Of a stretch of 58,680 nt of DNA, positions 65 to 58,650 are shown piece by piece (within the stretch, counting starts at the first letter, position 1; every line of letters starts with the position of its first letter). Made by a program: the position numbers and the translations under genes. Location: positions 1-58,680 of IMG/VR virus record IMGVR_UViG_3300036911_000012; one strand, given 5' to 3'. The notes under the pieces are model-generated. The model saw nothing but the letters and a program-made list of their open reading frames with translations. It did not search any database and had not been told where the DNA came from. The stretch is from a virus (lineage: Duplodnaviria; Caudoviricetes).

Positions 65-1099
65 ATGGCGAAGAAGATCAAGCACCCCCTGCCGGTTGAA
101 GCCGCTACCGTTGAGGCGGAGGGGAGCGTTGTAGTGGCGGTTGAGGGGGGCGAGTACACTCAGGCTGAGGCCGAGAGCGCGCACGTTGCGGGCGTCGAGA
201 CTGTCGAGGTGTTCGACCCTAGCACGGGCAAGGTCGAGACTGTCGTCGCGACCCCCGAGATTACCCCCAAGAGTAACGCCCCCGCCGACTACGTGGAGAC
301 GGACCCGTCGATTCTGGCGGGGGCGAACTCCCAGAACGGACTAGTGCGCGACCGGGCCAAGTTGCTGACCGACGTTGGGCGCCTGGGCAAGGCGGATGGC
401 TCGGGCAAGGCGAGTAAGGTCGCTCTGGCAGAGCGTGTGGTCGAGGCTTCCGAAAATGGAATAATCGGCACGGACGATGCGGAACGCATATACGAGAAGT
501 TCCGCACGGCTTCGGCAGCGGCAGCCGGTAAGCTGGCTGCCGATGAGCAGTCCAAGGACTCAAGGGACGTGCAAGTATCGAAGCTGCGACGATTCATAGA
601 AGTCGGCAAGGCGTTCGACAATTCCTGGAATATATTTGAGACGGCTGTAGACATGCATGTGCAGGCGCTCGGCGGCGACGACAAGAAGCTACTGCGCGTC
701 CACTCGTGCTACGAGTCGCTCGTAGCCGTGGCTAGGGCTCAGTTGCGCGACCGATGGGGGATCAAGCTCTCTGAGGATGACATCCGCAAGGTACTGTTTA
801 AGGAGTACGAGGAGCCCAAGGAGACTACCGGCCTCGATCTCGTCAAGCACGCGTTAAAGAACATGGAGCAAGCAATGAGCGGCCGCAAGGCCGGCACTGA
901 CCGGCCGGCGCGTGAGCCGCTGCGACATGACAACATCCTCGAGGCTGTAGGTCACATACGCTTCGTAATATCCGAACTCGACCCGGAGTTCTTTGCCAAG
1001 GAGGAGGCGGAGCGCGCCGCCGCTGAGAAGAAGGAGTTGGCTGCGATCCAGAAAGCCGAGAAGAAAGCCGCTGGCAAGGCGGCCACGGTCGCCGCGTAA
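65..1099 (+). CDS. Hypothetical early protein (344 aa), acidic N-terminus and Lys/Ala-rich C-terminus
   Basis: Long ORF with GGAGA RBS at 53-57, followed by a terminator-like hairpin; no family recognised. Confidence 0.8.
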   Translation: MAKKIKHPLPVEAATVEAEGSVVVAVEGGEYTQAEAESAHVAGVETVEVFDPSTGKVETVVATPEITPKSNAPADYVETDPSILAGANSQNGLVRDRAKLLTDVGRLGKADGSGKASKVALAERVVEASENGIIGTDDAERIYEKFRTASAAAAGKLAADEQSKDSRDVQVSKLRRFIEVGKAFDNSWNIFETAVDMHVQALGGDDKKLLRVHSCYESLVAVARAQLRDRWGIKLSEDDIRKVLFKEYEEPKETTGLDLVKHALKNMEQAMSGRKAGTDRPAREPLRHDNILEAVGHIRFVISELDPEFFAKEEAERAAAEKKELAAIQKAEKKAAGKAATVAA

Positions 1100-1134
1100 C
1101 ATTCCTTCGCACCCTCCCACGAAGGAATACTTGG

Positions 1135-1168
1135 CCCGCGTATGTTAACTCATACGCGGGTTACTTTT
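1135..1168 (+). terminator. Intrinsic terminator
   Basis: Perfect 10-bp stem CCCGCGTATG/CATACGCGGG with a 6-nt loop, followed by TTACTTTT, which overlaps the motif copy at 1161. Confidence 0.7.
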
Positions 1169-1358
1169 GAGAGTAGGTCGCCCGCTACTCGGGCACAGCG
1201 CCGTAGGGCCAAATGCGACTGGCATCGCTCAAATCGCGGAACCTTTGCCAGAAGGTCAAGGGCGAGCGGGCGGCCTACTCCCACAAGTAACCCACAAGGG
1301 TGCTTGAACTAGCGGATAACCGAGACACTCCCTTCCACACACAACCTAGGAGCGCGAC

Positions 1359-1625
1359 ATGCGCAAGCCCAACATCAAGTCGTCGACCAAGCCGGAAGCC
1401 AACGCCGCCAAGGAGCCCGAGCATGAGTTGCCTCTCCCGGAGTTGACGTACATGGAACAGATTCGTTCGTCCATCTACAGAGCGCGCACCGCCGTCCACG
1501 CTGCGGAAGCCGACTACCGGATCGCTGACGATGACCTCTCCACCAACGAGGTGGTCGAGATCATGCGCGACCTCAAGAGCCTCGCGCGTACCGTGGCGCA
1601 GATGGCTGCGTATGTCGGCATCTGA
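1359..1625 (+). CDS. Hypothetical protein (88 aa)
   Basis: ORF with AGGAG RBS; flanked by motif copies at 1275 and 1623. Confidence 0.7.
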   Translation: MRKPNIKSSTKPEANAAKEPEHELPLPELTYMEQIRSSIYRARTAVHAAEADYRIADDDLSTNEVVEIMRDLKSLARTVAQMAAYVGI

Positions 1626-1643
1626 CTCCAAGGAGTAACCCCC

Positions 1644-1955
1644 ATGCCGAACGGCCTGTACACAGACAACGACCGCAAGCCGGTTATCGTCCGCGCTAAA
1701 GACGCGGGCGTCCATTTTGGTACGCTTGTGTCCTACGAAGGGCGCACTGTCGTACTTGAGAACTCGCATCGTTTGTGGTCGTGGAAGGCCGCAGGGGGAG
1801 TGGCGCTAAGTGGAGTAGCCGCGACGTCACTTGTGGCCAGCGAGTCCAAGGTTGACGCTCTGGTTGCGCGCATTGTGATACTGGATGCGTGCGAAATTAT
1901 TGAGTGCACACTGGATGCGGCGGCCAGCATTGCGGGGGCCTGGGCGCATGCATAG
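1644..1955 (+). CDS. DUF6948-like small phage protein
   Basis: VIVRAKDAGVHFGTL...RLWSW...LSGVA pattern of this family, which commonly sits next to Gly-rich ORFs; AGGAG RBS supplied by the motif at 1623. Confidence 0.7.
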   Translation: MPNGLYTDNDRKPVIVRAKDAGVHFGTLVSYEGRTVVLENSHRLWSWKAAGGVALSGVAATSLVASESKVDALVARIVILDACEIIECTLDAAASIAGAWAHA

Positions 1956-2250
1956 CGTTGTCCTCTCCCAAGATGGCTCTAGCTCTGGCTCTGGCTCTGG
2001 CGATGGCTCTGGCTCTGGCGATGGCTCTGGCGATGGCGATGGCTCTGGCTATGGCTCTGGCGATGGCGATGGCTCTGGCGATGGCTCTGGCTATGGCTCT
2101 GGCAGTGGCTATGGCTATGGCGATGGCGATGGCTATGGCTATGGCTCTGGCAGTGGCGATGGCGATGGCTCTGGCTATGGCGATGGCGATGGCTCTGGCG
2201 ATGGCTATGGCTCTGGCTCTGGCGATGGCTCTGGCGATGGCTCTGGCTAA
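1948..2250 (+). CDS. Gly/Ser/Asp/Tyr low-complexity protein
   Basis: ATG at 1948 overlapping the previous gene; (GS/GD/GY)n encoded by GGCTCT/GGCGAT/GGCTAT hexamers. Confidence 0.6.
   Translation: MHSVVLSQDGSSSGSGSGDGSGSGDGSGDGDGSGYGSGDGDGSGDGSGYGSGSGYGYGDGDGYGYGSGSGDGDGSGYGDGDGSGDGYGSGSGDGSGDGSG
1972..2247. repeat. Degenerate hexamer tandem repeat (GGCTCT/GGCGAT/GGCTAT)
   Basis: Directly visible in the sequence. Confidence 0.95.
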
Positions 2251-2312
2251 GAACCCAGAACTATCATGTTTTTGCGCGCGCACTTTTTGCCACGCGTAGA
2301 AAGGGAACGTGC

Positions 2313-2553
2313 AATGGACGCGAAACACAAATGGGCGAGGATAATTCGCCCGGTCGAACCCAATCAGCTCCCCGCTGGTCTCGCCGCGCACTTACTCCCA
2401 GAAGTAAACGTCGTTGAGGTTGACCGGCGCATCTTCAACCCGAGTGACGAGCCGCTTGTGCGGCAACTGTTGAACGGCGATGGTCCGTGGGGGCATGAAT
2501 ACTATGGCGGAGACATTCCTGGCGCGGGTGTGCAACCCGACGTGGCCGATTGA
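2313..2553 (+). CDS. Hypothetical protein (start uncertain)
   Basis: ORF 2266..2553, with a plausible internal ATG (MDAKHKW) near 2314 after GGGAA. Confidence 0.4.
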
Positions 2554-2672
2554 ATCTGGTCGTGAGGGCATGCCCATCGCCGAAGTCAACATACCCTGGT
2601 ACATGGCGACCAGCCCGATGTTTGGTGAGCAGTTGGACGTGACGTTCACCCTCAATCTAACAGGAGACACCA

Positions 2673-3770
2673 ATGAAACTTTCGGAAGTGGAAGCGAGAA
2701 TACCGGCATGGTACGCGGCAAGTTCTGAGCCCAAAGGGCCGAGCTTCCACCTCAAGTCCAAGCCGGGCAGGGGCAAAACTTCTGTACTGGAACTGTCGCC
2801 CGGCTTGCTCAAGCGCGCCTTTGGCGATGGCGCGTACGGCTGCGTCACGATCAACGGCGCTAACGCCACGTTGAGCACGCTCTGCGGCTATCTCTGGCCG
2901 ACCGAGCATGATGGCGTCAAGTATTCCGAGTTTACGCGCCCGTTCTGGTGGTTTACTCCCGAGGGTAAGCCTCTGGACGCGTACGTCGGGGGCGTGATTA
3001 TCATCGACGAAGAGGACAAGCTCGGCCTCGACGAGAAGAAAATATGCGGCGAGGCCGCACTGTCCAAAGTGCTGGCGGGGCATCGCCTTCCGCCCGGCTG
3101 GGTCGTCTGGTTTGCGGGTAATCTCCAGACCGACCGCTCGGGATCGACTAAGCAGTTCGATCACCTTATCAACCGCCGTAACGAGATCAACATCGACGAC
3201 GACATTTTGTCGCTTGTCAAGTGGATGACTTCGCAGAAGTGCTTGCCGGAAACCATCGCGTTCGCGGAAGAAAACCCGCAATGCGTGTTCATGGACGCGC
3301 CCAAGGAGCAGGGGCCGTGGATGACTCCCAGGAGTCTGGTGGCGCAAGACACGTATTTGCGTGCTCTTATGAGCACGTTCTCGACCGACGACATCCCGAC
3401 CGATGCAACGACTATCGAGGAAGTTGCGGGCGGCGTCGGCGCGAGCGCGGCAGCGCAATTGTTTGCGACCATACGGCTCGGCCTGGAGCTGCCCAAGTAC
3501 GAGGAGATCATCGCCCGGCCTCGCGATATCCATGTGCCCACCAAGCCTGACGCCTTGCGTTTAGCGTCGTACAAGCTGGCCTCTCGCGTCAAGGACGAAG
3601 AAGTCACGCCGGTGCTGACGTACATGACGCGAGCGCCTGACGAGTTCCAAGTCATCTTCGCCAAGATGGCGATCAAGCGCAGCCCTAGGCTGGTGATGCA
3701 CAAGGACTTCGGAGCATGGTGCAGCAAGAAAGCGAGTCTCCTAGCAGTGCTGGGTGCGTTTGGGAAGTAG
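2673..3770 (+). CDS. MoxR-like AAA+ ATPase
   Basis: Walker A PGRGKTS, Walker B IIIDEEDK, W(F)AGN sensor, LINR, TPRS motif; adjacent to a VWA gene. Confidence 0.85.
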   Translation: MKLSEVEARIPAWYAASSEPKGPSFHLKSKPGRGKTSVLELSPGLLKRAFGDGAYGCVTINGANATLSTLCGYLWPTEHDGVKYSEFTRPFWWFTPEGKPLDAYVGGVIIIDEEDKLGLDEKKICGEAALSKVLAGHRLPPGWVVWFAGNLQTDRSGSTKQFDHLINRRNEINIDDDILSLVKWMTSQKCLPETIAFAEENPQCVFMDAPKEQGPWMTPRSLVAQDTYLRALMSTFSTDDIPTDATTIEEVAGGVGASAAAQLFATIRLGLELPKYEEIIARPRDIHVPTKPDALRLASYKLASRVKDEEVTPVLTYMTRAPDEFQVIFAKMAIKRSPRLVMHKDFGAWCSKKASLLAVLGAFGK

Positions 3771-3859
3771 ATATAGTTACCCACGCAGACTTACTCGTGG
3801 AAGTAAGTCTGTACCAACGTACGCCGCCACCATACCCCACTAAAATCTGGTAGTGACAC

Positions 3860-4078
3860 ATGCGAACAGTTTTTTCGATTGACGTGAAGGTCGACATTGA
3901 CAGCGGCGACACGGAGCGCGCCCAAGTCATGCTCGAAACTATGAAGAACGCCGCGCAGCAATTGTTTGCGCAGATGACGCTTCTTGCCGGCAAGCGCCCG
4001 CCTGAGGTGGCAGTGCGTACGTCGGACAGCATGCACGGGCAGCAGGACATTGAGTTGTTCCAGGCCCCAAAAGGGTAA
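3860..4078 (+). CDS. Hypothetical protein (72 aa)
   Basis: ORF filling the gap between motif copies at 3791 and 4135. Confidence 0.6.
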   Translation: MRTVFSIDVKVDIDSGDTERAQVMLETMKNAAQQLFAQMTLLAGKRPPEVAVRTSDSMHGQQDIELFQAPKG

Positions 4079-4154
4079 GCGGTCGGCCACTACCATGTGC
4101 ACTAGACCGCCTCCAATCGGCAGATGGACGGCTATAACTCCCAGGAGTAATACC

Positions 4155-5489
4155 ATGGCATACTTGCAAGACACCGACGCCAAAGTCTCAGGCGAGCAAG
4201 GCCAGTGGCCCCGGCTCAAGCTCGATCACGTCCAACAGGCCAAGTGGAACGAGACCCGCACGGCGGTGCTGTGGTCGCAGCCCGCGTTCGCCGACATCTG
4301 GTACTCGATGATGACCGATAGCAAAGGCGAAACAGCCTGGTTTACGGATCAAGTCCCTATTGCGGCGACGGATGACCATTACCTCTACCTCAACCCTAAG
4401 ACGTTCTTCGAGTACAAGCTCGCAACTCGCGTGTTTGGGTGCTGCCACGAAATCCTGCACTGCATGTTCGCGCACTGCACGCAGCTCCATCACTTGAGCA
4501 AGAAGGGCGTGGTGAAGTACGCCGATGGCAAGGAACTCCCGTTCGACAACGAGACCTTTCAGCGCAGCATGGATGCGGTTATCAACGCGATACTCGTGGC
4601 GTCCAACGTCGGCGAGATCGACCCCGCATTCGTTCTGGACAAACGCATCCCTGCCGACATGAGCGTGCTCGACGCATACCGTGTCATGTATGTCAAGCAG
4701 CCCCCGCAGCCCAAGAGCAACAAGGGCGACGGTGGCGCCAAGAGCCAGCCTACTCCTGGGGGTAAGCCGGGTGGCTACGACGAACATCTGCGCCCCGGCC
4801 AAGCTGAGGGCAAGGACGAGAACGAAGCGGAGAGCGGGCGCAACGAGACAGAATGGCGTACGGCTGTGGCCGCTGCGATGGCGTCCGCGCGCATGCAGGG
4901 CAATCTGCCCGGCACGCTGGAACGGCTCTTTGGGAAGTTGATGACGCCAGAGGTGGACTGGACGGACTTGCTGCGCTCGGCGCTCACTCGCAAGCTCGGC
5001 GTGGGCGGCGGCTCGTGGGAACAGCTCGACCCTGCCATGGTCATCCGTGGCATCGGGTCGCCTGGGCGCGTGTCGTTTGGTGCGGGCCGCATCGAGGTCG
5101 CCGTGGACACTTCCGGGAGTATCACGCAGAGTATGATGGACAGGTTCATGTCGGAGGTCGGCGGTATCATCGACGATGTGCGCCCAAAGCGGCTCGTGCT
5201 TACGCAGTGCGACTATGTCGTGCACGAACGCGTCGAGTGCGACGATGGCGCAGACCTCCAGCGTAAAATCCTGGGCGGCGGCGGCACGGCGTTCGCGCCG
5301 GTGTTCAAGCGTATCGCCGAAGAGGATGACGAGCCCGACGTGCTTGTGTACTTCACGGACGGATACGGTTCGTTCCCGCCCAACCCCGGCTACCCAGTTA
5401 TATGGGCTAACATCACTAAGGGTATCAGCGACAGCCACTATCCTTTCGGAGAAGTGGTGTTCGTGCCCCTCACCAACTCCAAGGAGTAA
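4155..5489 (+). CDS. DUF2201-type metallopeptidase plus VWA domain protein
   Basis: HEILH zincin motif, MIDAS DTSGS, GGGGTAF, YFTDGYG; start at the MAYLQ ATG (~4155) after AGGAG. Confidence 0.85.
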   Translation: MAYLQDTDAKVSGEQGQWPRLKLDHVQQAKWNETRTAVLWSQPAFADIWYSMMTDSKGETAWFTDQVPIAATDDHYLYLNPKTFFEYKLATRVFGCCHEILHCMFAHCTQLHHLSKKGVVKYADGKELPFDNETFQRSMDAVINAILVASNVGEIDPAFVLDKRIPADMSVLDAYRVMYVKQPPQPKSNKGDGGAKSQPTPGGKPGGYDEHLRPGQAEGKDENEAESGRNETEWRTAVAAAMASARMQGNLPGTLERLFGKLMTPEVDWTDLLRSALTRKLGVGGGSWEQLDPAMVIRGIGSPGRVSFGAGRIEVAVDTSGSITQSMMDRFMSEVGGIIDDVRPKRLVLTQCDYVVHERVECDDGADLQRKILGGGGTAFAPVFKRIAEEDDEPDVLVYFTDGYGSFPPNPGYPVIWANITKGISDSHYPFGEVVFVPLTNSKE

Positions 5490-5492
5490 GCC

Positions 5493-6269
5493 ATGGGCTT
5501 CCTGCATGAGACGCTAGTACGTCGAGTCGTCTTATGGTGCGAGAACGAGCGCGACGCTATGGCGCAGGCTATCCTCACGCCCATGGATGCGCACAAGGTG
5601 TATGCTGCGCTTGTGCCCAACAAGCGCGACGCTGTGGCGTTGGCGCATGTGGGGAGCATGTACCGGGCGGGATGCAAATCGCAGTGGGGTGGCCAACTGA
5701 CGGGGATGGAGTGTGGGGTGGAGGCGCGCATTACGTTCTGTGGCGACGATATGCGGGGCCTGTTTATCTTTCCGGTCGGGAATGGGTATGAGTACATGCC
5801 TTGCCTGAATGTGCGCGACCTAGGCGAAGCCCGCCAGGACCTTGAGGCGGCGGTGAGCGCTGTAATGGAGTGGAATGCGGCGCTCCGGGCGTTCCACTGG
5901 GTCGACAGTCATGCCCAGAGTATAGACGACTTCACACATTTTACGCCGTGGGTGGCAGACTCGTTCGGTGAGGGGCGTATCAACGTGGCGGAGTTCGATG
6001 CTGGCTTCAGGCGAGACACGCACTCTTGCAAACTTGAGATCGCGCGGCTATTAAAGCGTACACCTCCTAAGAACACGCGCCCCATGCCCAAGGAGTTGCT
6101 GAGCGTTTGCCGGGGGATCAGCGCACTGCGCGGGCGTATGAAACTCTTGGAGCGCAGAGAGTTTAGAAGCCCCCAGCCGGGTATGTGCGCCGTTGAATCG
6201 TTGGACGTTAGCACTGCGGTTGACACGCGCTTTGCGGAGGTAGCTGCGGCGTGGGCGTGGGTGAGTTAG
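5493..6269 (+). CDS. Hypothetical protein (258 aa)
   Basis: ORF with AAGGAG RBS inside the motif at 5474. Confidence 0.7.
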   Translation: MGFLHETLVRRVVLWCENERDAMAQAILTPMDAHKVYAALVPNKRDAVALAHVGSMYRAGCKSQWGGQLTGMECGVEARITFCGDDMRGLFIFPVGNGYEYMPCLNVRDLGEARQDLEAAVSAVMEWNAALRAFHWVDSHAQSIDDFTHFTPWVADSFGEGRINVAEFDAGFRRDTHSCKLEIARLLKRTPPKNTRPMPKELLSVCRGISALRGRMKLLERREFRSPQPGMCAVESLDVSTAVDTRFAEVAAAWAWVS

Positions 6270-6308
6270 TAGTGCGTTGCCTTGGGCTTACTCCTGGGAG
6301 TTAACGGC

Positions 6309-6497
6309 ATGTGGGTAGTCGAGACACTACGGACAGTCGAGGAGGGGGAGTTCCCCGTGTGGGTGCCGGTTGATCCCGAGCGGCCCACGTATGACTCTTA
6401 TGCAGAGGCCGCACATGCGCACGACGATTATAGAAATTCGCACCCTCGCGCGCGCATCCGCATGGAGCGACGACGGTTTGCCCCAGGCGAAGAATGA
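6309..6497 (+). CDS. Hypothetical protein
   Basis: ATG at 6309 after GGAG in the motif at 6288. Confidence 0.55.
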   Translation: MWVVETLRTVEEGEFPVWVPVDPERPTYDSYAEAAHAHDDYRNSHPRARIRMERRRFAPGEE

Positions 6498-6537
6498 ACC
6501 GCGCATGGCGCGCAACTAGAAATGGTGGAGCGAATAA

Positions 6538-8415: not shown

Positions 8416-8541
8416 GCGGAGTACACTACTGGCAGCCACCCCATACGAATGCCCATTCCTGACGTACTGCCAGGGCCGACGTTTTTATAAATACATGAGC
8501 GAACCGTAAAATAAAAACCTTACGCGAACCTTACTTTGTGC

Positions 8542-8570
8542 TTGACACGGTTGCAAGCTCTTGTTATACC
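8542..8570 (+). promoter_or_regulatory. Sigma70-type promoter
   Basis: TTGACA-N17-TATACC in an intergenic region. Confidence 0.65.
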
Positions 8571-8586
8571 TCGCCTTACGCGAGGG

Positions 8587-9130
8587 GGCTCTCATGGACA
8601 CACCTATCGGCAAGGCGAGCGAGTCGCTGTTTATGGGGCTTTCCGTTTTTTAGCGTGGAATCGCTCCGTAGCGCGATGAAGGCAATTCCGGTTTTCAACG
8701 TGGAAAAGAAGGAACAGATACGATGAACATGCATGAATTTTCCCGCGAAAACCTGGCCCGATGCACTTCGCCGAATGGCTTCAACCACCCTCTCGCGTCG
8801 TGGTCTCTCTCGGACTGGATGACGGCGACGCTCGGCGAACTGGGGGAAGCGGCCAACGTCTTGAAAAAGCTCAATCGCGTCCGCGACGGCATCCCCGGCA
8901 ATGCGGAGACGCCGGAACAATTGCAGGAGATGTTCGCGGACGAGCTGGCCGACAGCTTTATCTATCTCGACCTGCTGGCGCAGGCTGCTGGCGTCGATCT
9001 CCCCGCCGCGATCCGCAGCAAATTCGACCGTACCAGCGGAAAGATCGGATACGGCGGCTAGCCGGATTTCCACGCTCCGAGGCTCTCATGGACACACCTA
9101 TCGGCAAGGCGAGCGAGTCGCTGTTTATGG
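8587..9130 (+). repeat. 50-bp perfect direct repeat (8587-8636 and 9081-9130) flanking the MazG-like gene
   Basis: GGCTCTCATGGACACACCTATCGGCAAGGCGAGCGAGTCGCTGTTTATGG occurs twice. Confidence 0.92.
8723..9061 (+). CDS. mazG: MazG-like nucleotide pyrophosphohydrolase
   Basis: GELGEAANVLKK and DELAD..IYLDLLA acidic motifs; AAGGA RBS. Confidence 0.8.
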   Translation: MNMHEFSRENLARCTSPNGFNHPLASWSLSDWMTATLGELGEAANVLKKLNRVRDGIPGNAETPEQLQEMFADELADSFIYLDLLAQAAGVDLPAAIRSKFDRTSGKIGYGG

Positions 9131-9324
9131 CGCAGGGCGTCCTCGTAACCGCATGCCCTTGCGGATGCCACACTGTCAAGCTGGCATTCGTCGACGCGGC
9201 GGGCGTCATTGGCGCAATGGCCTCACTTACACCTCGCAAAGCTGTAGCTCTCGGGGCCGACCTGGACACGGTGGGCTTTCAGGTTATGGCTGGGGAAGGG
9301 TCCGACCATGAACATAGAGCTTAA
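9088..9324 (+). CDS. Hypothetical protein with CPCGC motif
   Basis: ATG at 9088 after GAGG, inside the second repeat copy. Confidence 0.6.
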   Translation: MDTPIGKASESLFMAQGVLVTACPCGCHTVKLAFVDAAGVIGAMASLTPRKAVALGADLDTVGFQVMAGEGSDHEHRA

Positions 9325-11006: not shown

Positions 11007-11028
11007 CTTACTTCGAGGAGTAACGAGC

Positions 11029-11217: not shown

Positions 11218-11219
11218 CC

Positions 11220-14011: not shown

Positions 14012-14081
14012 CTCTCAAGAGTAACCCACGCTTTACAAGCGCTTTACTTCGTGGTAACTCAAGCTCGGAAGGAATGCCCAG

Positions 14082-19168: not shown

Positions 19169-19171
19169 GTT

Positions 19172-45249: not shown

Positions 45250-45289
45250 GCGAACCTCTTACTTCCAGGAGTAGGCTGGTAGTGCGTAG

Positions 45290-49404: not shown

Positions 49405-49424
49405 CCTACTCTTGGGAGTAGTCA

Positions 49425-51633: not shown

Positions 51634-51688
51634 ATGATTACTCCCAAGAGTCACCTGACGGAGCACCCCTCCCCCAGGATGCTCATGC

Positions 51689-54100
51689 TCAACCTCCGTA
51701 GGCCCATTGATACGTGCCTGAAACGTTCGTGCAACCCACGCGCTGCGAACTCGTGCCGGTCGAGGAAGGCACCCCAAGATACGTCGGCGAAGCCGGGGCG
51801 TTGCTTACGAACGCTTGCAACCCGACCAAATAAGCCAAGCACGAAGGCAGGGTTCCTCCAATTGTATAAGTTGGGTATATTGGAAGCGCAAAGCCTCCGC
51901 CGGCCTGATTGTAGTTGTTCTGCCCTGTTACCGTCGTTGTCGTGCCGGGCAGGAAATTGCTGTTATACGCTTCGTTGTTTACGAACACACTATTGCCAAA
52001 CGTCGCACTGGAAAACGTCTCATCTGGGCTGTTGGACCATGTGTTGTTTATAAACTGTAGATAGTTATTCGAACCGCTAAATGCAATTTGTTGATTGGCC
52101 GCATTCTCAAAGTCCGACGACTGCACAACGCCATTCGACGTTCCTACGAACGACAAGTTGTTGTAATTACCTTCTATATCAGCGCCAATTATCGACCACG
52201 CTTGCCCCCCGCCAATCGCGATAGCCGCACCTGCCAACTGATTCCCGCTATTAAAGATCCCATCTCCCCATATACGCGCCGCGTTACAACTGCTACCAGT
52301 TGAGCAATCAATCGCATTCCCGTTGGTGTTAACTATCAAATTGTTGGTGATATACGGTGCGTAGGATGATGAAATAGCCAGTCCAACGTTCCATCTACCA
52401 TCTATCGTGACGCGATCGACCACGAAATCGCTATTGTTCCCGACGCGGATTGCGATACCACTTGCCGCACCGTACTGATCCAGCCGCATGTTCATTACCG
52501 AGAAACTCGTATATGCGGCGTAGTTTTGTGCGGGGGATACATACTTAATGCCTGTTGTTTGCGTAGGAGCTTCCCATCGGAGTGCCGTGCAGCCGCCTTG
52601 ACCGGAAATATTATACAGCCCGTAGTCGCTCTCTAGTAGCGTAGCAGTCAACAGCGCCGTCCCGCACGGGAGTTGCAGTTTCGTTCCCGACGAAGCCGTG
52701 AGCGCGGCCTGAAGCGCCACAGTGTCATCGTGCGTCGCCAGTCCGCCGGAGAGGGTCTGACTTGATGCGTTCGCCAACACGAGAGTGTTCGTGCCGCCGC
52801 CAGAAACGATAGTCGAGAGCAAAAACCCATTCGTCGCCGTCGCGCTCGGCGCTAGCGCCAGCCAATCCGGGCGGTGTGAATCGTTTTCATTGTTGTCTTT
52901 CCATGTCGAGGTCGAAGTGACCCCGACGAATTGCATGAGGTTTAGCGCAGCGCCGCTGGAGACTGTCGTCAGGTTGAACGTGGCGCCGGTGCCCGCCCCT
53001 GACGAACTGGCTTGTCCGACTGTCGATGCCGCAGGTTCCCAATAGTACCCCGGAGCCGTTACCGTCACCGTCGCGACCGCAGAGCCCGAGAGCGTCGCTA
53101 CAGTCAGCACCGTGCCATCTGTGAGCGTTATGGTGTCCCCGACCGCGTACCCGGAGCCCCCCGCCGCCACGTTCGCCGCGCTCACGACGAAAATGCTGCG
53201 TGACACGACGTAACTCGACGGAATCGTCCCCGTCCCTGGGGGGTTCCACGAAATTGTATTATAGTTTGTCGGTGACAGCAGAGCGTTGCCCGTCGAGACG
53301 CTGACCGGCGTTATCGCAGGCCCGACTCCGCCGTAAGCATCGACGGCTTGCACGGTATAATAATACGTCGTGCTACCTGTCGCCCCCGTTGGCGTTATCG
53401 TCAGCCCTGTTGGCGGGTTGAGCGAGAATGTCGGACCGCAGCCATTGACGCGAACCCCCTCGCCGGTCACAAAATCAATCGCGGCGCTGAGCGATATGTT
53501 CGCCGAGCCCGAGGCGCACGTTGCCGACACGCTTTGACCCGACATAGAGACGTTGGTCAGTGCGACCGGGAGCGGCTGGTAGAGCGCTGCGCCACCCAAA
53601 GGCGTCGCCCATGTGCCGTCGCCGCGCCAAAACGTCGTCGATGCAGCCCCCGTCCCACTGTTGAGATTGGCGACCGGAAGATTGCCGGTGACCTGTGTCC
53701 CGAGGTTGACGGTCGCAGCCGTCGCCAGCGCGCCGAATGCAACCCCGCCGGTTTTTGTGCATGCCAGCGCCAATGATCCTGATGAGTTTGTGCAATCTCC
53801 GGTATGAGCGGGTTCCTGCGCGGCCTGTAGCGTGCCCGTCGCCTGCGTCGACAGGTTGACCGTGGTCTGCGTCCCTGCATATATCTGGGCATCCAGGGTC
53901 GTTAAATTCGTCAGGATGCTGTTGAACGTCGCGCCCGGCACGCGCCCGAGCCCGTTCGTCCAGGGCACAGCATTGATCTGGTTCTGCACCGACGTGGGGG
54001 TGACCTGCGCCTGTGCGCAGAGGCTACTCCCAAGAGTAAGCGCCAGGGCCGCCACAAGCGCCATAACACGCGCCAATATTTCAGTCACGAACGAGCCCAT
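51689..54100 (-). CDS. Tailspike/fibre-like beta-helix protein with Sec signal peptide
   Basis: ATG at 54100 after GGAG; [31 protein letters not shown]|Q; [21 protein letters not shown], Asn-rich beta-helix rungs. Confidence 0.8.
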
Positions 54101-54119
54101 CCGCCTACTCCGAGGCTTC

Positions 54120-54167
54120 ATCACAGTTTTTAGCATAGTTTTTATCACAGTTTTTATCACAGTTTTT
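54120..54167. repeat. 12-bp tandem repeat, four copies (ATCACAGTTTTT, one degenerate)
   Basis: Visible between the two fibre genes, overlapping the stop at 54157. Confidence 0.85.
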
Positions 54168-55467
54168 GGCACGCCAGAAGAACGACACTCGCCGCACGAG
54201 TTTCCGTCGTGCAGTTCGAGCACGCCACGCCAACAGCACTTGTAGGCTGTTGTTGATACGATGTTCCTGTAAGCCCCAGAGAAGCGCCACCTCCACTACC
54301 TGCCGTGGCGACAAAGCTGTACGACCCCGTAATACCAAGCGTGACAGGGCCAACCGCACTGCTCTCACCACCAGCCAGCACAGTTCCAGTTGGGTCGCGC
54401 CCAGCGCCACTGTCTATACCGCGCAGCACGCGCCCACGCGCGTCTGCGATTCCGCTCGCCCCGTTCGCGGCAGCCCACCCGTTCGGACACGTGGCGAGAT
54501 TAAACATGGCCACTTCCCCCGGAGGCGCAGTTGGTCCGGTCGACGTAAGCACAAACTCAACTCCGTCAAACGTAGCCGCCGCAATCTGCCCTGGAACCAG
54601 CTCACCCCCTGCCATAGGAGCTACCCCAGCGGGGGTTTGTCGGTACAAGTTTTCAATCGAGGCCGCCCCTACAGCTATGGTCGTAGGCCCTGTGTTGAGC
54701 GTGGCCGGGGTGAACACAATACTCGTGCCATATGTATTGGTAAACCCCGTGGGGACGGTAGCCCCCACAGTTATGGCGTTGGCCGCCCCGCCTATAGAAC
54801 TTCCAGTAAAAACGTATGACCCAAGCCCAGGTGGCGGGTACGCGAGCCCCAGCATGGACGCCGTAACGCTGGCGGGGCCTAAATTGCCCGCCGCTGCGCC
54901 ACTGGCAAGCATGGACGCCGTAACGCTGGCTGGGCCTAAATTGCCCGCCGCTGCGCCACTGGCAAGCATGGACGCCGTAACGCTGGCGTGGCCTAAATTG
55001 CCCGCCGCTGCGCCACTGGCAAGCATGGACGCCGTAACGCTGGCGGGGCCTAAATTGCCCGCCGCTGCGCCACTGGCCATTTTCGACGACGTAACTGCAC
55101 CGGGAGATATGACCGTCGCAAACGACCCCAAACTTGTTAGCACGTCCCCCGTAAGCACGGGAGCTTGCGCAGATTGAAGGGTGCCAAGGAGCGAGGTGGT
55201 CTGTACTTGTCCTGTGGCAAATATACTGGCCCCAGGAGCAGTTATGGTCGCGCTGTATACCTGCCCAAGCACTACGGTCAGGTTCGTCAGGATGCTGTTG
55301 AACGTCGCGCCCGGCACGCGCCCGAGCCCGTTCGTCCAGGGCACAGCATTGATCTGGTTCTGCACCGACGAGGGGGTGACCTGCGCCTGTGCGCAGAGGC
55401 TACTCCCAAGAGTAAGCGCCAGGGCCGCCACTCTGGCAACGTTGCGAAGTCGTAATAGTCGCAGCAT
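54157..55467 (-). CDS. Tail-fibre-like protein with tail-collar domain and Sec signal peptide
   Basis: [28 protein letters not shown]|Q; collar motif [17 protein letters not shown]...[16 protein letters not shown]. Confidence 0.8.
54851..55077. repeat. 57-bp coding tandem repeat, four copies ([19 protein letters not shown])
   Basis: Units start at 54851, 54908, 54965 and 55022. Confidence 0.92.
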
Positions 55468-55496
55468 CGAAACGGCCCCCGTGTAGCGTGCGCGAT

Positions 55497-55525
55497 ACTA
55501 TACACGCACGCTACGAGCGTGTCAA
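55497..55525 (-). promoter_or_regulatory. Near-consensus sigma70 promoter upstream of the fibre genes
   Basis: TTGACA-N17-TATAGT on the minus strand, 30 bp upstream of the ATG at 55467. Confidence 0.75.
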
Positions 55526-55544
55526 GCTCGTATCGGCCCCCGCT

Positions 55545-55808
55545 TTATTCGCCGCCGAATGGCAGCTCCGGGTCTTCGGCTGGAACGGCGGTCAGTTCAC
55601 TGTGCGGCACTTCGGGCTCCGGCTTCTCGACCGACACCCACTGCCCGTCTGGGTGTTTCCACATAATCCAGCCATCGAACAGGCCGCCGATGCAGACGCC
55701 GTGGTCGTCGCTGAACGGGATGATGCGGCTTTCGACGATCTCGCCCCTGACCCCCTTGCGCTTGTCGTCGCTTGCGACCGTAAATTTCTTACCCACCGTA
55801 CCCCCCAT
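55545..55808 (-). CDS. Hypothetical protein
   Basis: Tiled ORF. Confidence 0.55.
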   Translation of the reverse strand: MGGTVGKKFTVASDDKRKGVRGEIVESRIIPFSDDHGVCIGGLFDGWIMWKHPDGQWVSVEKPEPEVPHSELTAVPAEDPELPFGGE

Positions 55809-55817
55809 AGACCTGAA

Positions 55818-56012
55818 TTACTTTTTCTTGCCGAAATTCTCGGCGAACACCGCCCGCTTGCGCTCCGCAGGGTTGGACGAGTTCCTGGCCTGCGCGAGTT
55901 TACTCGCCGGTATTTTCTGCCCCTGGGGCACCCCCAGCTCCTTATGCAGGAACCCCTTGTGCGACGGTTTAATTTTTATCGGCTTGAGCTTACTCTCGGA
56001 AGTAGCTTTCAC
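55818..56012 (-). CDS. Small basic phage protein
   Basis: IKPSHKG.LHKELGVPQGQKIP..KL...RKRA.FA pattern common in phage late regions. Confidence 0.65.
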   Translation of the reverse strand: MKATSESKLKPIKIKPSHKGFLHKELGVPQGQKIPASKLAQARNSSNPAERKRAVFAENFGKKK

Positions 56013-56177
56013 GAGTAACCCCTCTTACACCCGCCAGCTCGCCATACTTGCCGGCTCACCCCCCATTACAGCGGCAGCCCCGAACCCTGCGTCGTAGGTT
56101 CGGGGCTGCCTTTCCAAACGTCGAGGGGGTGGGGCCGTCTGGAGGAGTCTTGCGCATAGCACGTTTGACGCGGGTAG

Positions 56178-56513
56178 TCAACCCCCAAGTACGGCCCGGC
56201 TGACTGTCGTAGTAGACTGCGTAGGCGGCACGTGCTCGGGCCACGAGGCGAAGCCCCCTTCGCGCTTCTGGTCGTTGTCGGGGTGTCCTATGGCAAGCAT
56301 GCGGGCGAGCACCGCATACTGTCGACCGTCATGGTCGAACACCGACAGATTCACGGTGTGCTCGTTGTGAACGTACGTGATGATGGCGGCATGGGGGAGG
56401 ATTGCCCCGTCCTTGCGCATCACTTGTCGCACCTTCTGCGCTCGGTCGTTCTTCTCGTCGAAGTACGGCCAGTAATGCACGACTCGACCAATGGCGGGTT
56501 CGCTGAGCAACAT
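56178..56513 (-). CDS. Hypothetical phage protein
   Basis: PAIGRVVHY...AAIITYV....VNLSVF pattern. Confidence 0.65.
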   Translation of the reverse strand: MLLSEPAIGRVVHYWPYFDEKNDRAQKVRQVMRKDGAILPHAAIITYVHNEHTVNLSVFDHDGRQYAVLARMLAIGHPDNDQKREGGFASWPEHVPPTQSTTTVSRAVLGG

Positions 56514-56559
56514 GTAAGGGTCTCTCTTTTATAACGCCCCAGTATTTTGGGGTGGAGGT

Positions 56560-56588
56560 GTTTTATAGGGGAGGGGTTTTTGTGTCAA
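56560..56588 (-). promoter_or_regulatory. Possible sigma70 promoter
   Basis: TTGACA-N17-TAAAAC on the minus strand upstream of 56513. Confidence 0.45.
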
Positions 56589-56809
56589 GGTGTTTTATCG
56601 TTTTTCGGTGTGGGTGTTTAAGGATGTAAGGGAATTGGAAAATCCGGGTCATATGGTTGAAGGGTCCCTAAAGGCGAGGTCCCCCTGCCCCTACCCCGGT
56701 CCAGGCGCCCCGCCGACCCTGGGGGGTACATTCCCCCTCCCTAGGACAGAGAGACGGTCTGCGCCTACTCGCAAGAGTAAGCTCCCCCTCCCTCTGGTAG
56801 ACACCGGAC

Positions 56810-57206
56810 GGTCCCCGCTGCAATCGGGACTGGCGCCAGACAAAGGCGTCCCCAGACTGACCAAGCCTAAGGGTGAGCTAAGACGCTCAGGCAGTCGCCC
56901 GTAAAAGCTGATGAAGTGCAGCAGGGGGAAACTAGAACGGAGCGCGGACAAGTGGCGCTTTCTCCCACAAGGAAGGTTAAGACCTTCCGGGAGCCGAACC
57001 CCGGAAGGTCAAACTGAAAAGGCGCCAAAGTCTGCAAAAACTCGATATGGCACGGCGAAGCAAGCCTACCCCTGCAACGCCCCTAATCGCATCCCGCGAG
57101 CCGCTAACAATCGAGAGAACACGAATGACCTGAGCGGAAGCCTGGGGAACAATGCACAACAAAGACCCAACATGAAAGCCGGGGGCCTAGCAAGCTCCCG
57201 GCCTTT
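56810..57206 (+). ncRNA. Candidate structured non-coding RNA
   Basis: Several nested stems with G-U pairs on the plus strand, ending in a terminator-like hairpin; no convincing CDS. Confidence 0.4.
57178..57206 (+). terminator. Terminator-like hairpin
   Basis: GCCGGGGGC/GCTCCCGGC stem followed by CTTT. Confidence 0.45.
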
Positions 57207-57250
57207 ACATAGTAAGCCTTACTCTTGGAGTAAGGCTTACTATGTAAAGG
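57202..57250. repeat. Perfect inverted repeat, 23-bp arms and 3-nt loop
   Basis: CCTTTACATAGTAAGCCTTACTC-TTG-GAGTAAGGCTTACTATGTAAAGG. Confidence 0.95.
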
Positions 57251-57258
57251 AGAACGTC

Positions 57259-57534
57259 ATGAAAAAGCTTTATGGAGAACAAGACTACCTCGCCAAGACG
57301 CTAAAAAGCGTCGAGCCGGTCGAAGTCACGCGCAACGCGCGCAAAGTGCGCGCTTGCGGCGTTATCTCGACTGCCCAGCATACTGGGCATGTGATGTTTG
57401 CGCGCGCGATCAAGGTCGCGCCGCGCACGCTCAAAAACGCCAAGAATGCGTCGTCCAAGGGGGCGGCGTCGGAAGTGAGGAAAATTTCTATAGAGGAGTA
57501 CCGCGCAACATCCATCTGGGCCTCTTGGGAGTAA
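57259..57534 (+). CDS. Hypothetical basic protein (91 aa)
   Basis: AAGGAG RBS; the stop codon lies in the motif copy at 57519. Confidence 0.6.
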   Translation: MKKLYGEQDYLAKTLKSVEPVEVTRNARKVRACGVISTAQHTGHVMFARAIKVAPRTLKNAKNASSKGAASEVRKISIEEYRATSIWASWE

Positions 57535-58158
57535 GTCAAGAAACCCTCCTATGCGGCGTACGAAAACGAGACGCAAAGCCTTCGGATGAACTGAGCGCGC
57601 CAGCCAAATATGTAATGGAGTGCGAACCTTACATATTTAACGGGTACACTCGTTTGGCACAAAAAAGCCACAATTGGGCATCGCAACATTACAAGTTGCG
57701 TCAACCTTGCGTGCTTGAAGTTGATTGTGGCAAAAGTGCGGCCGTAAGGGCGGCAGCGCTGTGCTAAGTCGTTGTCTTTGTTATCTTGTATATGTTATTC
57801 TTATTAGTAATTAATAAATTCATACTGTTTCTATACGAAGTTCGTGATAAGCTCGTACGAGCTGGTTGATAGCGCACCTTACCGCCCTTATGTGTGTTTT
57901 TCGGTCTTAGAATAAACAATTAAAAATTCCCCTGCAACATCAAACACTTGCAAAATCTTATTCTAAACCCCCTCTGACCATCGCATGGTAAAACCGTGAC
58001 AAGCCACGACATGCGCACGGTTTGCGCAACCTTTTCGCACGCAAAAGTAAAACACTTGTACCCCCTTGACATGCCTCTCTTGCCTGTTTATGTATAAAAC
58101 CATAAGCAGGGGCCATCACGGCGTACGCCGAGCGTACACCTTCCGCGAGAGACATACC

Positions 58159-58650
58159 ATGAGCGTACGGGAAACGCTAGTAACGCGTGCATACGTTGCG
58201 GAATGCTTAGGCGTTTCGCAACAAACGATTGCGAGATGGGAACGCAGCGGCGTATCACCCATACGAGCGAGGCGCACAGTTCGTACGAAGCAACTGCGCT
58301 ACACCCTTGCCGACATCGAAGCCTACAAAGAGTGGCTGGCGACCGAGCAGCTTGAGGAAATTCCCCTGCCGCCCAAACCCGCCACGTCGGCCAAGGCAAA
58401 GCCCGCAACCTTACAAGTTGCAAGCGCTCCCGCCGACTTGTCGGCTGTGTTAGACTATCCCGTTGAACTATTAACAGATGAACAACGTGGATTGTTTGAC
58501 ACGAAGATGAACTGGTCGATCTCGCAAGGCGACTCCCAAGAGTCGGCTTGGAACTGGGCGCGTAACTTCGTGTGCGCGCAATTCCTGCTGGGCGAATACG
58601 CTGGCGGGGTATACAATTCGCCCGACGAAGACTTAGCTGCGTATGAGTAG
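58159..58650 (+). CDS. MerR/excisionase-like HTH protein
   Basis: TRAYVAECLGVSQQTIARWERSG...RYTLADI; TTGACA at 58066 upstream. Confidence 0.7.
   Translation: MSVRETLVTRAYVAECLGVSQQTIARWERSGVSPIRARRTVRTKQLRYTLADIEAYKEWLATEQLEEIPLPPKPATSAKAKPATLQVASAPADLSAVLDYPVELLTDEQRGLFDTKMNWSISQGDSQESAWNWARNFVCAQFLLGEYAGGVYNSPDEDLAAYE

Follow-up and report, generated by a model that had tools for sequence, protein, structure and literature searches.

What could a single short palindrome do for a phage when it recurs some 60 times along the genome, inside genes as well as between them? This question is raised by a 58,680-bp stretch of DNA (hereafter the window), which comprises the whole of the IMG/VR virus record IMGVR_UViG_3300036911_000012 (completeness estimate 96%) and carries the 16-bp element YTACTC-N4-GAGTAR from one end to the other. 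Searches of its genes against Pfam and PHROGs show the phage to be a podophage. Based on the present analyses, we think that selection maintains the copies as an array of recognition sites on duplex phage DNA, most likely read by a phage-encoded symmetric dimer that is tied to an early gene module, and judging from sequence comparisons we hold this reading with a little more confidence than doubt.

The array exceeds chance expectation and is evenly spaced

An earlier reading of this DNA (the original prediction) had claimed about 60 copies genome-wide, and this count stands. Allowing up to two mismatches to YTACTC-N4-GAGTAR, we found 63 copies between positions 261 and 58545, where 3.59 ± 1.83 were expected; the largest number in a shuffled sequence was 9, and none of 100 shuffles reached 63. 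Since 3.59 copies are expected, some three to four of the 63 may be chance matches, and those at 31931 and 57795 look like such. The exact core TACTC-N4-GAGTA, for which far less than one occurrence by chance had been predicted, has an expectation of 0.01 and was found 17 times (maximum 1 in 100 dinucleotide shuffles). The description as a 16-bp palindrome needs a qualification: the motif is real, but seldom a perfect 16-mer, as the perfect form TTACTC-N4-GAGTAA occurs exactly once (23227), with one mismatch in 36 copies and two in 21.

The spacer had been described as a fixed 4 bp with a bias towards YYRR. The bias is evident (Y in 49, Y in 45, R in 52 and R in 47 of 54 copies), and a scan of gap lengths for TTACTC/GAGTAA with at most one mismatch gave 37 copies at gap 4 and zero to one at each other gap from 0 to 10 except gap 3. 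The latter accounts for three copies (21478, 32843 and 57219). The gap length is thus specific.

The predicted densities of about one copy per 0.6 kb in the early arm and one per 1.3 kb in the late arm were also recovered. The early arm (1–20200) has 29 copies at up to one mismatch, with a mean spacing of 710 bp, or 33 at up to two mismatches, which is about one per 0.6 kb; the late arm (20200–47400) has 20 copies with a mean spacing of 1252 bp. The spacing is more even than chance would give, the coefficient of variation (CV) of the gaps being 0.63 against 0.97 in simulations (P = 0.0002), with values of 0.47 for the early and 0.56 for the late arm. Only 3 gaps are shorter than 250 bp where 12 were expected, and long genes contain internal copies every 0.5–1.5 kb. 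Even spacing was also found in the cultured Rhizobium phage RHph_TM27A (hereafter TM27A) and in two further relatives, G001 and G002 (CV 0.60–0.71, P ≤ 0.007). The array behaves as if every site served a territory of about 1 kb.

About half of the copies had been placed within coding sequence. According to our own calls of open reading frames (ORFs), 35 of the 63 copies lie deep in coding sequence, 11 are coding but no more than 60 nt away from a gene end, and the other 17 fall between genes. Altogether, 37% of the copies lie within 60 nt of a gene boundary, compared to 17% of the genome. The enrichment survives a codon-preserving control, consisting of 300 synonymous-codon shuffles that keep every protein and the codon usage of each gene: at up to one mismatch there are 35 in-gene copies against a mean of 1.27 (maximum 4) in the shuffles, and at up to two mismatches 43 against 7.5 (maximum 14). 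The array is therefore real and statistically overwhelming, and it is no artefact of codon or amino-acid usage.

Accommodation of the copies in genes and gene junctions

The reading frames of the 45 in-gene copies are unequally used (frame 1, 26 copies; frame 0, 11; frame 2, 8). In frame 2 the TAA or TAG of the motif would stand in frame, and of the eight copies concerned two supply the stop codon of their gene (5474, 19357) while the other six have the triplet altered. At gene junctions, the TAA or TGA at the 5′ end of the motif can close the upstream gene (1623, 14009), and GGAG of the 3′ arm is found 3–9 nt ahead of the next ATG. Window residues encoded by motif codons have an identity of 0.25 among orthologues, compared to an average of 0.39. 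This low conservation implies either that sites are placed where the protein tolerates them or that the sites impose changes on it. We rejected a mobile palindrome of the repetitive extragenic palindromic (REP) or MITE (miniature transposable elements with inverted repeats) kind, because 46 of the 63 copies lie in ORFs whose frame is kept open, 16 bp is not a multiple of three, and orthologues carry sites in the same alignment columns.

The family of relatives carries lineage-specific versions of the array

The nearest cultured relatives of the phage are four Rhizobium phages (RHph_TM27A, TM27B, TM29 and TM3_14A), with identities of 59.9% for the portal and 63.7% for the capsid protein, and more than 505 relatives of the capsid protein are present in IMG/VR. 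A search at the DNA level with the window gave no match. TM27A contains its own array, GTTACC(T)-N6/N5-(A)GGTAAC, with 44 and 20 copies, respectively, at up to two mismatches. Among 52 loci that were anchored on the major capsid protein (MCP) and at least 9 kb long, a de novo palindrome scan returned a motif of the T(T/C)AC type in 35 on the first pass, and in more of them with 4-mers. Among 19 genomes assembled from fetched stretches, 16 carry a homogeneous array with a half-site that differs by lineage, namely TTACTC (N4 or N3), TTACTG, TTACT, TTACC(T), TTACCC, GTTACCG, TCACTA or TCACTC, and TTACTT, CTTACC, TGTTCC and TTACAG were found in other relatives. The outer TTAC...GTAA, 7–8 bases apart, is widely kept, and the inner two to three positions change together on both arms. 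Of the family loci anchored on the early ATPase gene described below, 25 of 27 contain an array palindrome of the TTAC type. Even close relatives can differ in motif, for example G006 (TTACTC) and G007 (TTACCC).

In-gene sites share alignment columns across genomes in 62 pairs, compared to 16.8 ± 4.0 (maximum 35) in 500 permutations. Such shared columns include genomes of different motif classes, as in polA column 228 in G006, G007, G020 and G010, from which it follows that sites persist in place while their sequence follows the motif of the lineage. Likewise, relative L005, at about 70% DNA identity to the window, has kept the junction copies past the large terminase (TerL) gene and at the 3′ end of the TerS-like ORF. 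The original prediction had pointed to related phages as a place to look for analogous motifs that vary together with one protein; lineage-specific motifs were indeed found, and the protein side of that idea is considered below.

Loci L052 and L072 had been thought to lack the early module and showed no motif in their late regions, but both have p65 and the ATPase (see below) and their whole genomes carry arrays, the first-pass 5-mer scan having been too insensitive. The sequence CCGG-N5-CCGG, enriched in G012–G015 (48 copies in G013), is a collagen-like coding repeat with a 9-nt period and a spacing CV of 2.4, and does not constitute a second array.

Four early genes occur together with the array

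At the start of the early arm, four plus-strand genes encode p65 (65–1099; 344 amino acids (aa), all-helical, no known family), a MoxR-like AAA+ ATPase (2673–3770; phrog_1297), p72 (3860–4078; a conserved acidic protein of 72 aa between the ATPase and VWA genes) and a DUF2201 metallopeptidase-like and VWA-like protein (longest ORF 3984–5489, likely start 4155). In a phylogenetic profile over the 19 genomes, no families other than these four were found in array-bearing genomes while missing from G013, G015 and G017. Counted over the 12 array-bearing genomes whose early region is covered, p65 is present in all 12, the ATPase in 11, the DUF2201/VWA protein in 11 and p72 in 10, the last two being present in G001 as well. 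G013 and G015, both rated 100% complete, have neither the module nor a homogeneous array, whereas G017 is uninformative on the module, as it is 81% complete and its contig begins at polA, where the module would lie. In a four-protein tree, G013 is sister to the array-bearing G012, and G015 branches beside them; the position of G013 means that at least two concerted changes of module and array are needed. G013 keeps about 10 heterogeneous TTAC-N6-8-GTAA sites, which look like decaying remnants. Conversely, G021, G022 and G024, in which p65 and the ATPase are present, contain 21, 20 and 22 homogeneous sites versus 2, 1 and 4 for the reversed pattern. The ATPase is found in both array-bearing prophages described below, and p65 in 21 of the 27 ATPase-anchored loci, the six others having short upstream flanks. 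The link between module and array, as seen in these genome comparisons, is correlative. RNA-library contigs match short pieces of the p65, ATPase, VWA, exonuclease and primase genes, which is no demonstration of transcription.

Symmetry of the site and the possibility of a hairpin

A palindrome can be read on duplex DNA or can act as a stem-loop in single-stranded nucleic acid. For the latter, one could think of lagging-strand or extruded DNA, with the copies as priming or loading signals for the DUF927 primase-helicase in each Okazaki-sized interval or as hairpin promoters of the N4 type, or of mRNA hairpins with a role in processing, stability or the masking of ribosome sites, to be recognised by a sequence-specific protein. 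The geometry, with a stem of 5–7 bp and a loop of 3–6 nt, would suit such a structure, as would spacers whose length shifts by one base within genomes and arms that changed together between lineages (CTC/GAG, CCT/AGG, CCC/GGG, CCG/CGG, CTG/CAG and CAG/CTG). The spacing of 0.6–1.3 kb with few short gaps is close to the length of bacterial Okazaki fragments, the junction copies bring GGAG of the 3′ arm to within 3–9 nt of an ATG, and the ATPase and VWA genes are common to N4-like phages, the early promoters of which are hairpins.

The pairing within individual copies speaks against a stem. Across the arms of the 63 copies, all six pairs are of the Watson-Crick type in only 3, five in 39 and four in 21, which leaves 60 copies with at least one non-Watson-Crick pair in a 6-bp stem, and an inner pair is compensated in just one copy. 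The non-pairs on the sense strand are G-U in 24 cases, A-C in 35 and others in 22, so that G-U is not preferred over A-C (p = 0.19). For 16 copies sampled, the predicted energy of the RNA hairpin lies between 0 and −10.1 kcal/mol (median about −3.9), with values of −1.8 kcal/mol or weaker for 4 of them. When oriented by transcription, the matrix is mirror-symmetric, including the YYRR loop, and almost without strand bias, the exceptions being spacer position 1 (p = 0.003) and, at motif position 2, the variants that form stop codons. In two relatives the inner half-site positions are not complementary, as seen in TTACCY...RGGTAA of G001 and in TTACCC...GAGTAA of a Pseudolabrys prophage (G028). 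Furthermore, the array-less G013 and G015 still have the primase, helicase and polymerase, and a phage RNA polymerase was not recognised in the window. The early promoters of phage N4 itself are about three oriented hairpins with a short stem of conserved sequence and a 3-nt loop, read by the virion RNA polymerase. The short-stem geometry and the shared MoxR-like ATPase are points of likeness; the differences are that here about 60 symmetric copies are found, that 35 of the 63 lie deep in genes and that no RNA polymerase gene was recognised. On balance, we consider a stem-loop unlikely.

Taken together, the independent variation of half-sites, the uncompensated defects, the absence of a G-U bias, the near absence of strand bias and the weakness of the hairpins favour duplex DNA over a structure that depends on pairing. 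These sequence statistics favour two half-sites that are read independently on duplex DNA by a symmetric protein, with centres about 10 bp apart.

Comparison with stoperators and other genome-wide sites

A special case of protein binding would be an immunity repressor of a temperate phage that occupies the sites and thereby stops transcription along the prophage, in the manner of stoperators. As described in the passages on them (PMC9283540, PMC4351075), stoperators are tens of repressor-binding sites that occur genome-wide in intergenic and coding sequence and act beyond promoters, which is also the pattern here, and the density and the mix of intergenic and in-gene copies resemble both stoperators and the Cluster O repeats discussed below (PMC4351075). 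In addition, family members were found in large bacterial contigs, prophages keep their arrays, and the density is greatest in the early arm. According to the same passages, however, stoperators are 13-bp sites to which the immunity repressor of temperate phages binds as a monomer, and those of Cluster A mycobacteriophages are asymmetric and oriented with transcription (PMC4351075), whereas the sites in the window are symmetric. Neither an integrase nor a repressor (including Cro-like proteins) nor an RNA polymerase family was recognised among the window ORFs in Pfam, PHROGs and family searches. The sole helix-turn-helix (HTH) protein is not conserved, and the genes that co-occur with the array form an AAA+/VWA module rather than an immunity cassette. 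We therefore regard a stoperator-like system as quite improbable. The stoperator motif co-evolves with its protein between subclusters.

Palindromes of 12–17 bp that are read by dimers at many places of one replicon include the KorB OB sites of RK2, the ParB/parS, Noc and SlmA sites and the conserved inverted repeats of phiC31. Such sites serve silencing, partition or occlusion and set one replicon or region apart. They are analogies of function, and the present array differs from them in having far more sites per kb, at about one per kb genome-wide, with many in genes and no clustering near an origin. No ParB, KorB, TetR or HTH family was detected among the conserved genes in searches of 56 ORFs and 25 ORFs, with profile methods that can miss distant members.

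The only close analogue that we found in the literature on palindromic or dyad repeats in phage genomes, the coverage of which was incomplete, is the repeat of Cluster O mycobacteriophages (Corndog and its kin). The passages concerned describe a 17-bp dyad, TGTTCGG-N3-CCGAACA, with 34 copies in Corndog, of which about one third fall within genes and many occupy the short gaps between genes, with a greater density in one arm (PMC4351075). They report no tie to promoters and no meaningful orientation, state that the repeat is absent from the host genome and that the phage is not obviously temperate, and predict a dimeric DNA-binding protein, the repeat being unexplained as of 2015 (PMC4351075). 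A genome note of 2019 still terms the repeat unique to that cluster. As judged from these passages, the two systems have in common dozens of copies of one short palindrome along the whole genome in intergenic and coding sequence (17 and 46, respectively, of the 63 copies here), and a site that is absent from the host genome (here, almost so outside the phage DNA in host assemblies of relatives). They differ in that Corndog is an unrelated siphovirus of Actinobacteria with an unrelated motif, that its arms are invariant whereas most window copies carry one defect, and that the passages on the Corndog repeats report no lineage variants, spacing statistics or linked module. Mycobacterium phages gave no match in the ATPase and p65 searches, and the window capsid is less than 28% identical to mycobacteriophage capsids, none of Cluster O being among the matches listed. 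The two kinds of array are analogous, not homologous. Relative L166 has TGTTCC-N2-GGAACA, which resembles the Corndog half-site, probably by chance.

Genome-wide arrays of a single palindrome in phages were thus known before, albeit unexplained (Cluster O, 2015). The array of the window is one case of a widespread cis-element array that differs by lineage and apparently co-evolves in a mostly uncultured family. What is new here is the very large family, a motif that changes by lineage within a constant architecture, the selection within genes, the even spacing, and a module of four genes that appears and disappears with the array. We found no paper on the repeats of this family or naming RHph_TM27A, though coverage was incomplete and a description elsewhere is possible. 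In line with the original prediction, which did not recognise the consensus, no characterised operator matching it was encountered in anything searched.

Rarity of perfect sites

Perfect sites are rare in the window in a particular way: the outer T..A pair is present in only 1 of the 17 copies with an exact core, compared to 26 of the 46 with an inexact core (Fisher p = 0.0004), and 39 of the 63 copies have exactly one defect. Such avoidance could indicate that the sites are targets of a DNA-acting enzyme, either a nickase or nuclease (HNH, VRR-NUC or endonuclease VII-like) or a modification enzyme, where a single defect would ensure a nick rather than a double-strand cut. Nuclease genes are present in the window, and some podophages carry sequence-specific nicks. 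The distribution of the enzymes does not fit: the VRR-NUC and PD-(D/E)XK exonuclease genes are present in the array-less G013, G015 and G017, the HNH-like ORF was found in just 5 sources, and the endonuclease VII-like gene is missing from several array-bearing genomes. No methyltransferase was found in the window with Pfam and PHROGs, and the site is enriched rather than avoided. Contigs of four public runs, assembled sequence in which ends cannot be read, were aligned with 1–20000 and gave no ends, nicks or joints at the sites. TM27A has 15 perfect 18-mers, from which it is clear that avoidance of perfect sites is not general. Moreover, a functional threshold of about one mismatch together with mutational entropy, there being 1 perfect sequence versus 36 with a single mismatch, explains the one-defect pattern without any enzyme. 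We consider an enzyme target very unlikely.

The motif is nearly confined to phage DNA in bacterial assemblies

Family members were identified in several bacterial assemblies, that is, in the hosts of relatives rather than of the window phage itself. Two Bradyrhizobium isolates contain them as separate contigs of 60.6 and 61.0 kb, a Pseudolabrys metagenome-assembled genome (MAG) has two tandem copies with an offset of 61,893 bp in a 465-kb contig (G028:C4, about 22–146 kb; loci L177 and L178), and a single copy is found in a 239-kb contig of a Xanthobacteraceae MAG. The sites of the Pseudolabrys prophages are hybrids, TTACCC-N4-GAGTAA, with one half per motif class. Some members of the family are therefore temperate or persist in cultures, which is shown for relatives and not for the window phage.

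In these assemblies the motif occurs almost only in phage DNA. For TTACC-N6-GGTAA, 5 of 6 copies in the 8.7-Mb Bradyrhizobium assembly are on the 60.6-kb phage contig, 9 of 9 in the second assembly (7.9 Mb) are on two contigs bearing phage genes, and 6 of 6 in the Pseudolabrys MAG (4.0 Mb) are within the two prophage copies. The looser TTAC-N6-8-GTAA was found within prophage regions in 28 of 37 cases in the Pseudolabrys MAG and in 12 of 23 in the Xanthobacteraceae MAG. This near-confinement makes a host-factor site unlikely: although a host switch could explain why relatives as close as G006 and G007 differ in motif, the notion that the sites are bound by a protein of the host or imitate one of its signals, with lineage versions that track hosts, is at odds with the counts outside phage DNA (1/6, 0/9 and 0/6 for the stricter motif; 9/37 and 11/23 for the looser one, against 66 for the reversed-pattern control) and is highly improbable. 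The Bradyrhizobium sp. 139 assembly has a second contig (G027:C166) with 7 TTACC-N6-GGTAA sites in 24 kb plus the family ATPase, which is probably the early half of the same phage or of a second phage.

Candidate proteins for reading the sites

The original prediction had proposed a dimeric protein that binds along the whole phage chromosome, with silencing, organisation, protection or packaging as its possible functions. A selected cis-element is indeed present and its statistics fit a symmetric reader of duplex DNA, but most of the binders that were named are unsupported. The HTH genes at 9308, 19962–20138 and 58159 are singletons or without a family match: the HTH_17/MerR-like protein encoded at 58066–58650 has no homologue in the 15 relatives searched and was a singleton in profile iteration, the protein of 9308–9607 was likewise a singleton without an HTH match, and the ORF at 19962–20138 matched no family. 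The HTH-like insert in the 2460-aa protein was dismissed as well, because this protein is present in the array-less G017. We also rejected the proteins encoded at 14633–15889 (418 aa) and 14082–14603 (173 aa), which are both present in array-less genomes and gave no lead in the PDB, in family searches (Pfam) or in the Atlas. In each of the 15 genomes covering the region, array-less ones included, the genes for these two conserved proteins (14082–15889) are flanked by those for the helicase and the primase. Weak PADLOC matches of the ATPase to PglX (E 0.005) and of the HTH protein to mad1 (E 0.0008) were judged not meaningful.

This leaves p65, the only candidate of the original prediction that co-occurs with the arrays. 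The p65 family has 826 cluster representatives at E ≤ 0.001, none with an annotation. In its predicted structure (predicted local distance difference test (pLDDT) 75.8), a disordered acidic N-terminus would be followed by an all-helical core and a charged helical tail. Its matches in BFVD are two uncharacterised phage proteins, it resembled no named family at ≥0.85 in the ESM Atlas, and a tblastn search in cultured phages gave no match. That p65 is the reader is a guess from co-occurrence, and one that we hold to be less probable than not. The p72 model (pLDDT 87.8) would consist of an arm, a long helix and a β-hairpin, and is acidic. We rejected its fold matches as evidence of DNA binding: the top Foldseek rows were MADS-box DNA complexes at E values of 1.3–7, but their VIA-align Z scores of 3.2–3.4 are below those of unrelated rows at 3.9, and the protein is acidic.

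A possible mechanism and the points that weigh against it

If the sites are read by a phage-encoded symmetric dimer, each subunit would contact one half-site (TTACTC), the half-sites being about one helical turn apart. Selection would keep about one usable site per 0.6–1.3 kb, each with up to one or two defects, and would place the sites in gene junctions and, through codon choice, within genes. The whole chromosome would thereby bear a phage-specific mark that is missing from the host chromosome. The array would depend on or serve the early module of p65, the MoxR-like ATPase, p72 and the VWA/DUF2201 protein; our best guess is that p65 might read the sites and that the ATPase/VWA pair might load, remodel or remove p65. 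As a result, phage DNA would be occupied along the whole genome, which could mean a roadblock or timing device for transcription or replication, an organisation of the chromosome, or a means of telling phage from host DNA.

Several observations weigh against this proposal. For p65, no family match was obtained in Pfam, NCBIfam or PADLOC and no match at E ≤ 0.001 in a Foldseek search of the PDB; its best VIA-align Z score of 8.2 is to membrane helices (of ABC transporters), and those to TetR and SlmA (5.4–6.3) are within the noise for helical models. A DNA-binding fold was thus not recognised, and its residues do not track the motif, since no column of the p65 alignment separates the T5 from the C5 motif class. 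Likewise, no fold match was obtained for the acidic p72 (best Z 3.9). The spacer shifts by one base in relatives (38 copies with gap 6 and 17 with gap 5 in TM27A; 14 with gap 5 and 7 with gap 6 in G002), which is easier for a hairpin loop than for a rigid dimer. Homologues of the ATPase also occur in N4-like phages, which apparently lack p65, and in Roseobacter phage CRP-7, and CRP-7 has no array in 50 kb, from which it follows that the ATPase alone is insufficient. The module link rests on only two solid negative genomes, module and array could be independent ancestral traits that were lost with a larger early region, and array density varies ten-fold among module-positive genomes.

A wider interpretation is that a large and almost uncultured family of podophages, which infect Alphaproteobacteria as well as other bacteria of soil and water, writes a lineage-specific palindromic 'barcode' about once per kb, and that this would be read by an early-expressed machine in which a new helical site-reader (p65) is worked by a MoxR-type AAA+ ATPase and a VWA/metalloprotease-like adaptor. 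The machine would locate, coat or organise the DNA of the phage and distinguish it from that of the host, with barcode and reader co-evolving and decaying together upon loss of the module. In this extended form we consider the idea doubtful. If true, barcode reading would represent a novel type of self-marking in viruses and might by analogy explain the Cluster O arrays; if the MoxR/VWA-linked protein is the reader, this would be the first function for the ATPase/VWA pair that is conserved in N4-like phages. The size of the family, the change of motif by lineage, the selection and even spacing of the sites, the module link and the culturable member RHph_TM27A together make the question of what reads such arrays, and why, directly testable.

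Positions of the copies along the genome

Copies are given below by window coordinates without strand; each has one mismatch to YTACTC-N4-GAGTAR unless stated otherwise, and copies with an N3 spacer are counted separately. Gene identifications are from Pfam and PHROGs.

In the early plus-strand arm, the first copy (261–276) is within the p65 gene, and 1161–1176, 1275–1290 and 2392–2407 are intergenic. The leading TGA of 1623–1638 is the stop codon of ORF 1359–1625, and its GGAG stands 5′ of the ATG at 1644. The ATPase gene contains 2953–2968 and is followed by the intergenic 3791–3806. The copy at 4135–4150 is directly 5′ of the in-frame ATG at 4155, the likely true VWA start; 4750–4765 is within the VWA gene, the final TAA of 5474–5489 is its stop codon, and 6288–6303 is intergenic. 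The family A DNA polymerase gene (polA; 6538–8415, plus strand) has copies at 6570–6585 (5′ end; TAT replaces TAR, frame 2), 7034–7049, 8038–8053 (two mismatches) and 8299–8314 (none). Next come 9546–9561 close to the 3′ end of ORF 9308–9607, 9864–9879 at the 5′ end of the exonuclease ORF (two mismatches; TAC replaces TAR, frame 2), 10633–10648 in the exonuclease gene and 11008–11023 in ORF 10834–11217. Both the PD-(D/E)XK exonuclease and the VRR-NUC nuclease are encoded on the plus strand of this arm. The SNF2 helicase gene (11504–14011, plus strand) contains 11601–11616 (no mismatches), 12066–12081 and 13337–13352 (two each) and 12533–12548, and its stop codon is the leading TAA of 14009–14024. 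ORF 14082–14603 has 14406–14421, while ORF 14633–15889 has 15369–15384 (no mismatches) and 15817–15832 (CAA replaces TAA, frame 2). Within the DUF927 primase-helicase gene (15981–18854, plus strand) are 16669–16684 (no mismatches), 17373–17388 and 18016–18031. The copy at 19153–19168 forms the end of ORF 18851–19168, 3 nt ahead of the ATG at 19172, and 19357–19372 gives the stop codon to ORF 19172–19372.

The next copy, 20153–20168, adjoins the stop of the gene for the 2460-aa polyvalent virion protein (20169–27551, minus strand). In the late arm, this gene itself contains an N3-spacer copy (21478–21492, one mismatch), 21927–21942 (weak, two mismatches), the sole perfect TTACTC-N4-GAGTAA (23227–23242), 24379–24394 (two mismatches), 24682–24697 and 26389–26404. 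The gap between this gene and that for the 1141-aa virion protein is filled by 27557–27572. The latter gene has 28228–28243, 28261–28276, 28852–28867 and 30223–30238 (no mismatches in the last two). The first two of these are located in an exact in-frame tandem duplication (28216–28288; period 33 nt, 11 codons), one in each repeat. A copy without mismatches, 31011–31026, is at an intergenic junction; 31931–31946 (two mismatches) is a probable chance match, and 32140–32155 is 3 nt 5′ of the start of gene 31028–32137. Further copies are an N3-spacer copy without mismatches (32843–32857), 33261–33276 in gene 33094–34905, 35312–35327 in ORF 34909–35391 and 36190–36205 in ORF 36017–36841 (no mismatches in both), 37238–37253 in the intergenic region 3′ of the major capsid protein gene (37283–38287, minus strand), 39094–39109 in gene 38307–39323, the intergenic 40943–40958 and 42039–42054, and 45259–45274, intergenic and 3′ of the SU10-like portal gene (45290–47389, minus strand).

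The two copies with positions kept in L005 are 47915–47930, at the 3′ end of the TerS-like ORF, and 49406–49421 (no mismatches), 1 nt past the stop of the TerL gene (47953–49404). The endolysin-like gene contains 51638–51653. The adjacent tail-fibre-like genes 51689–54223 and 54157–55467 contain 54024–54039 and 55400–55415, respectively (no mismatches in both), near their 5′ ends and in identical 40-nt contexts (54012–54051 and 55388–55427), which points to an N-terminal module common to both, or to recombination at the motif. The remaining copies are 55990–56005 at the 5′ end of ORF 55818–56012, 56765–56780 (no mismatches) in a divergent intergenic region, an N3-spacer copy without mismatches (57219–57233), a probable chance match with two mismatches in an AT-rich stretch (57795–57810), and the variant CGACTC-N4-GAGTCG (58530–58545; two mismatches), which holds the sole compensated pair.

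Other features of the genome and its relatives

The 2460-aa protein has an inorganic-pyrophosphatase-like domain at residues 1049–1153, a hint of LPD39 and a C-terminal region that matches DarB-like antirestriction PHROGs. An AT-rich non-coding stretch 5′ of the HTH gene (57534–58066), which includes TTATTCTTATTAGTAATTAATAAATTCA at 57795, may serve as a promoter or an origin; a promoter and terminator scan of 55000–58680 gave no signal above shuffled controls. At 1904–2299 (about 2000–2670) there is a repetitive stretch with Gly/Tyr-codon repeats at loose ends and a contig depth of up to 2688 from an unrelated freshwater run (X3), which is probably a low-complexity Gly-rich protein repeat common to many organisms. 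Roseobacter phage CRP-7 has the same two-arm layout as the window phage, with a gene for a T7-like RNA polymerase after the primase, whereas no RNA polymerase was recognised in the window. The deposit of RHph_TM27A (MN988461.1) has attL and attR annotated within the phage genome (L002 24636–24649 and L003 25780–25793), and its label of 'putative integrase' for the DUF927 primase-helicase seems to be an annotation error.

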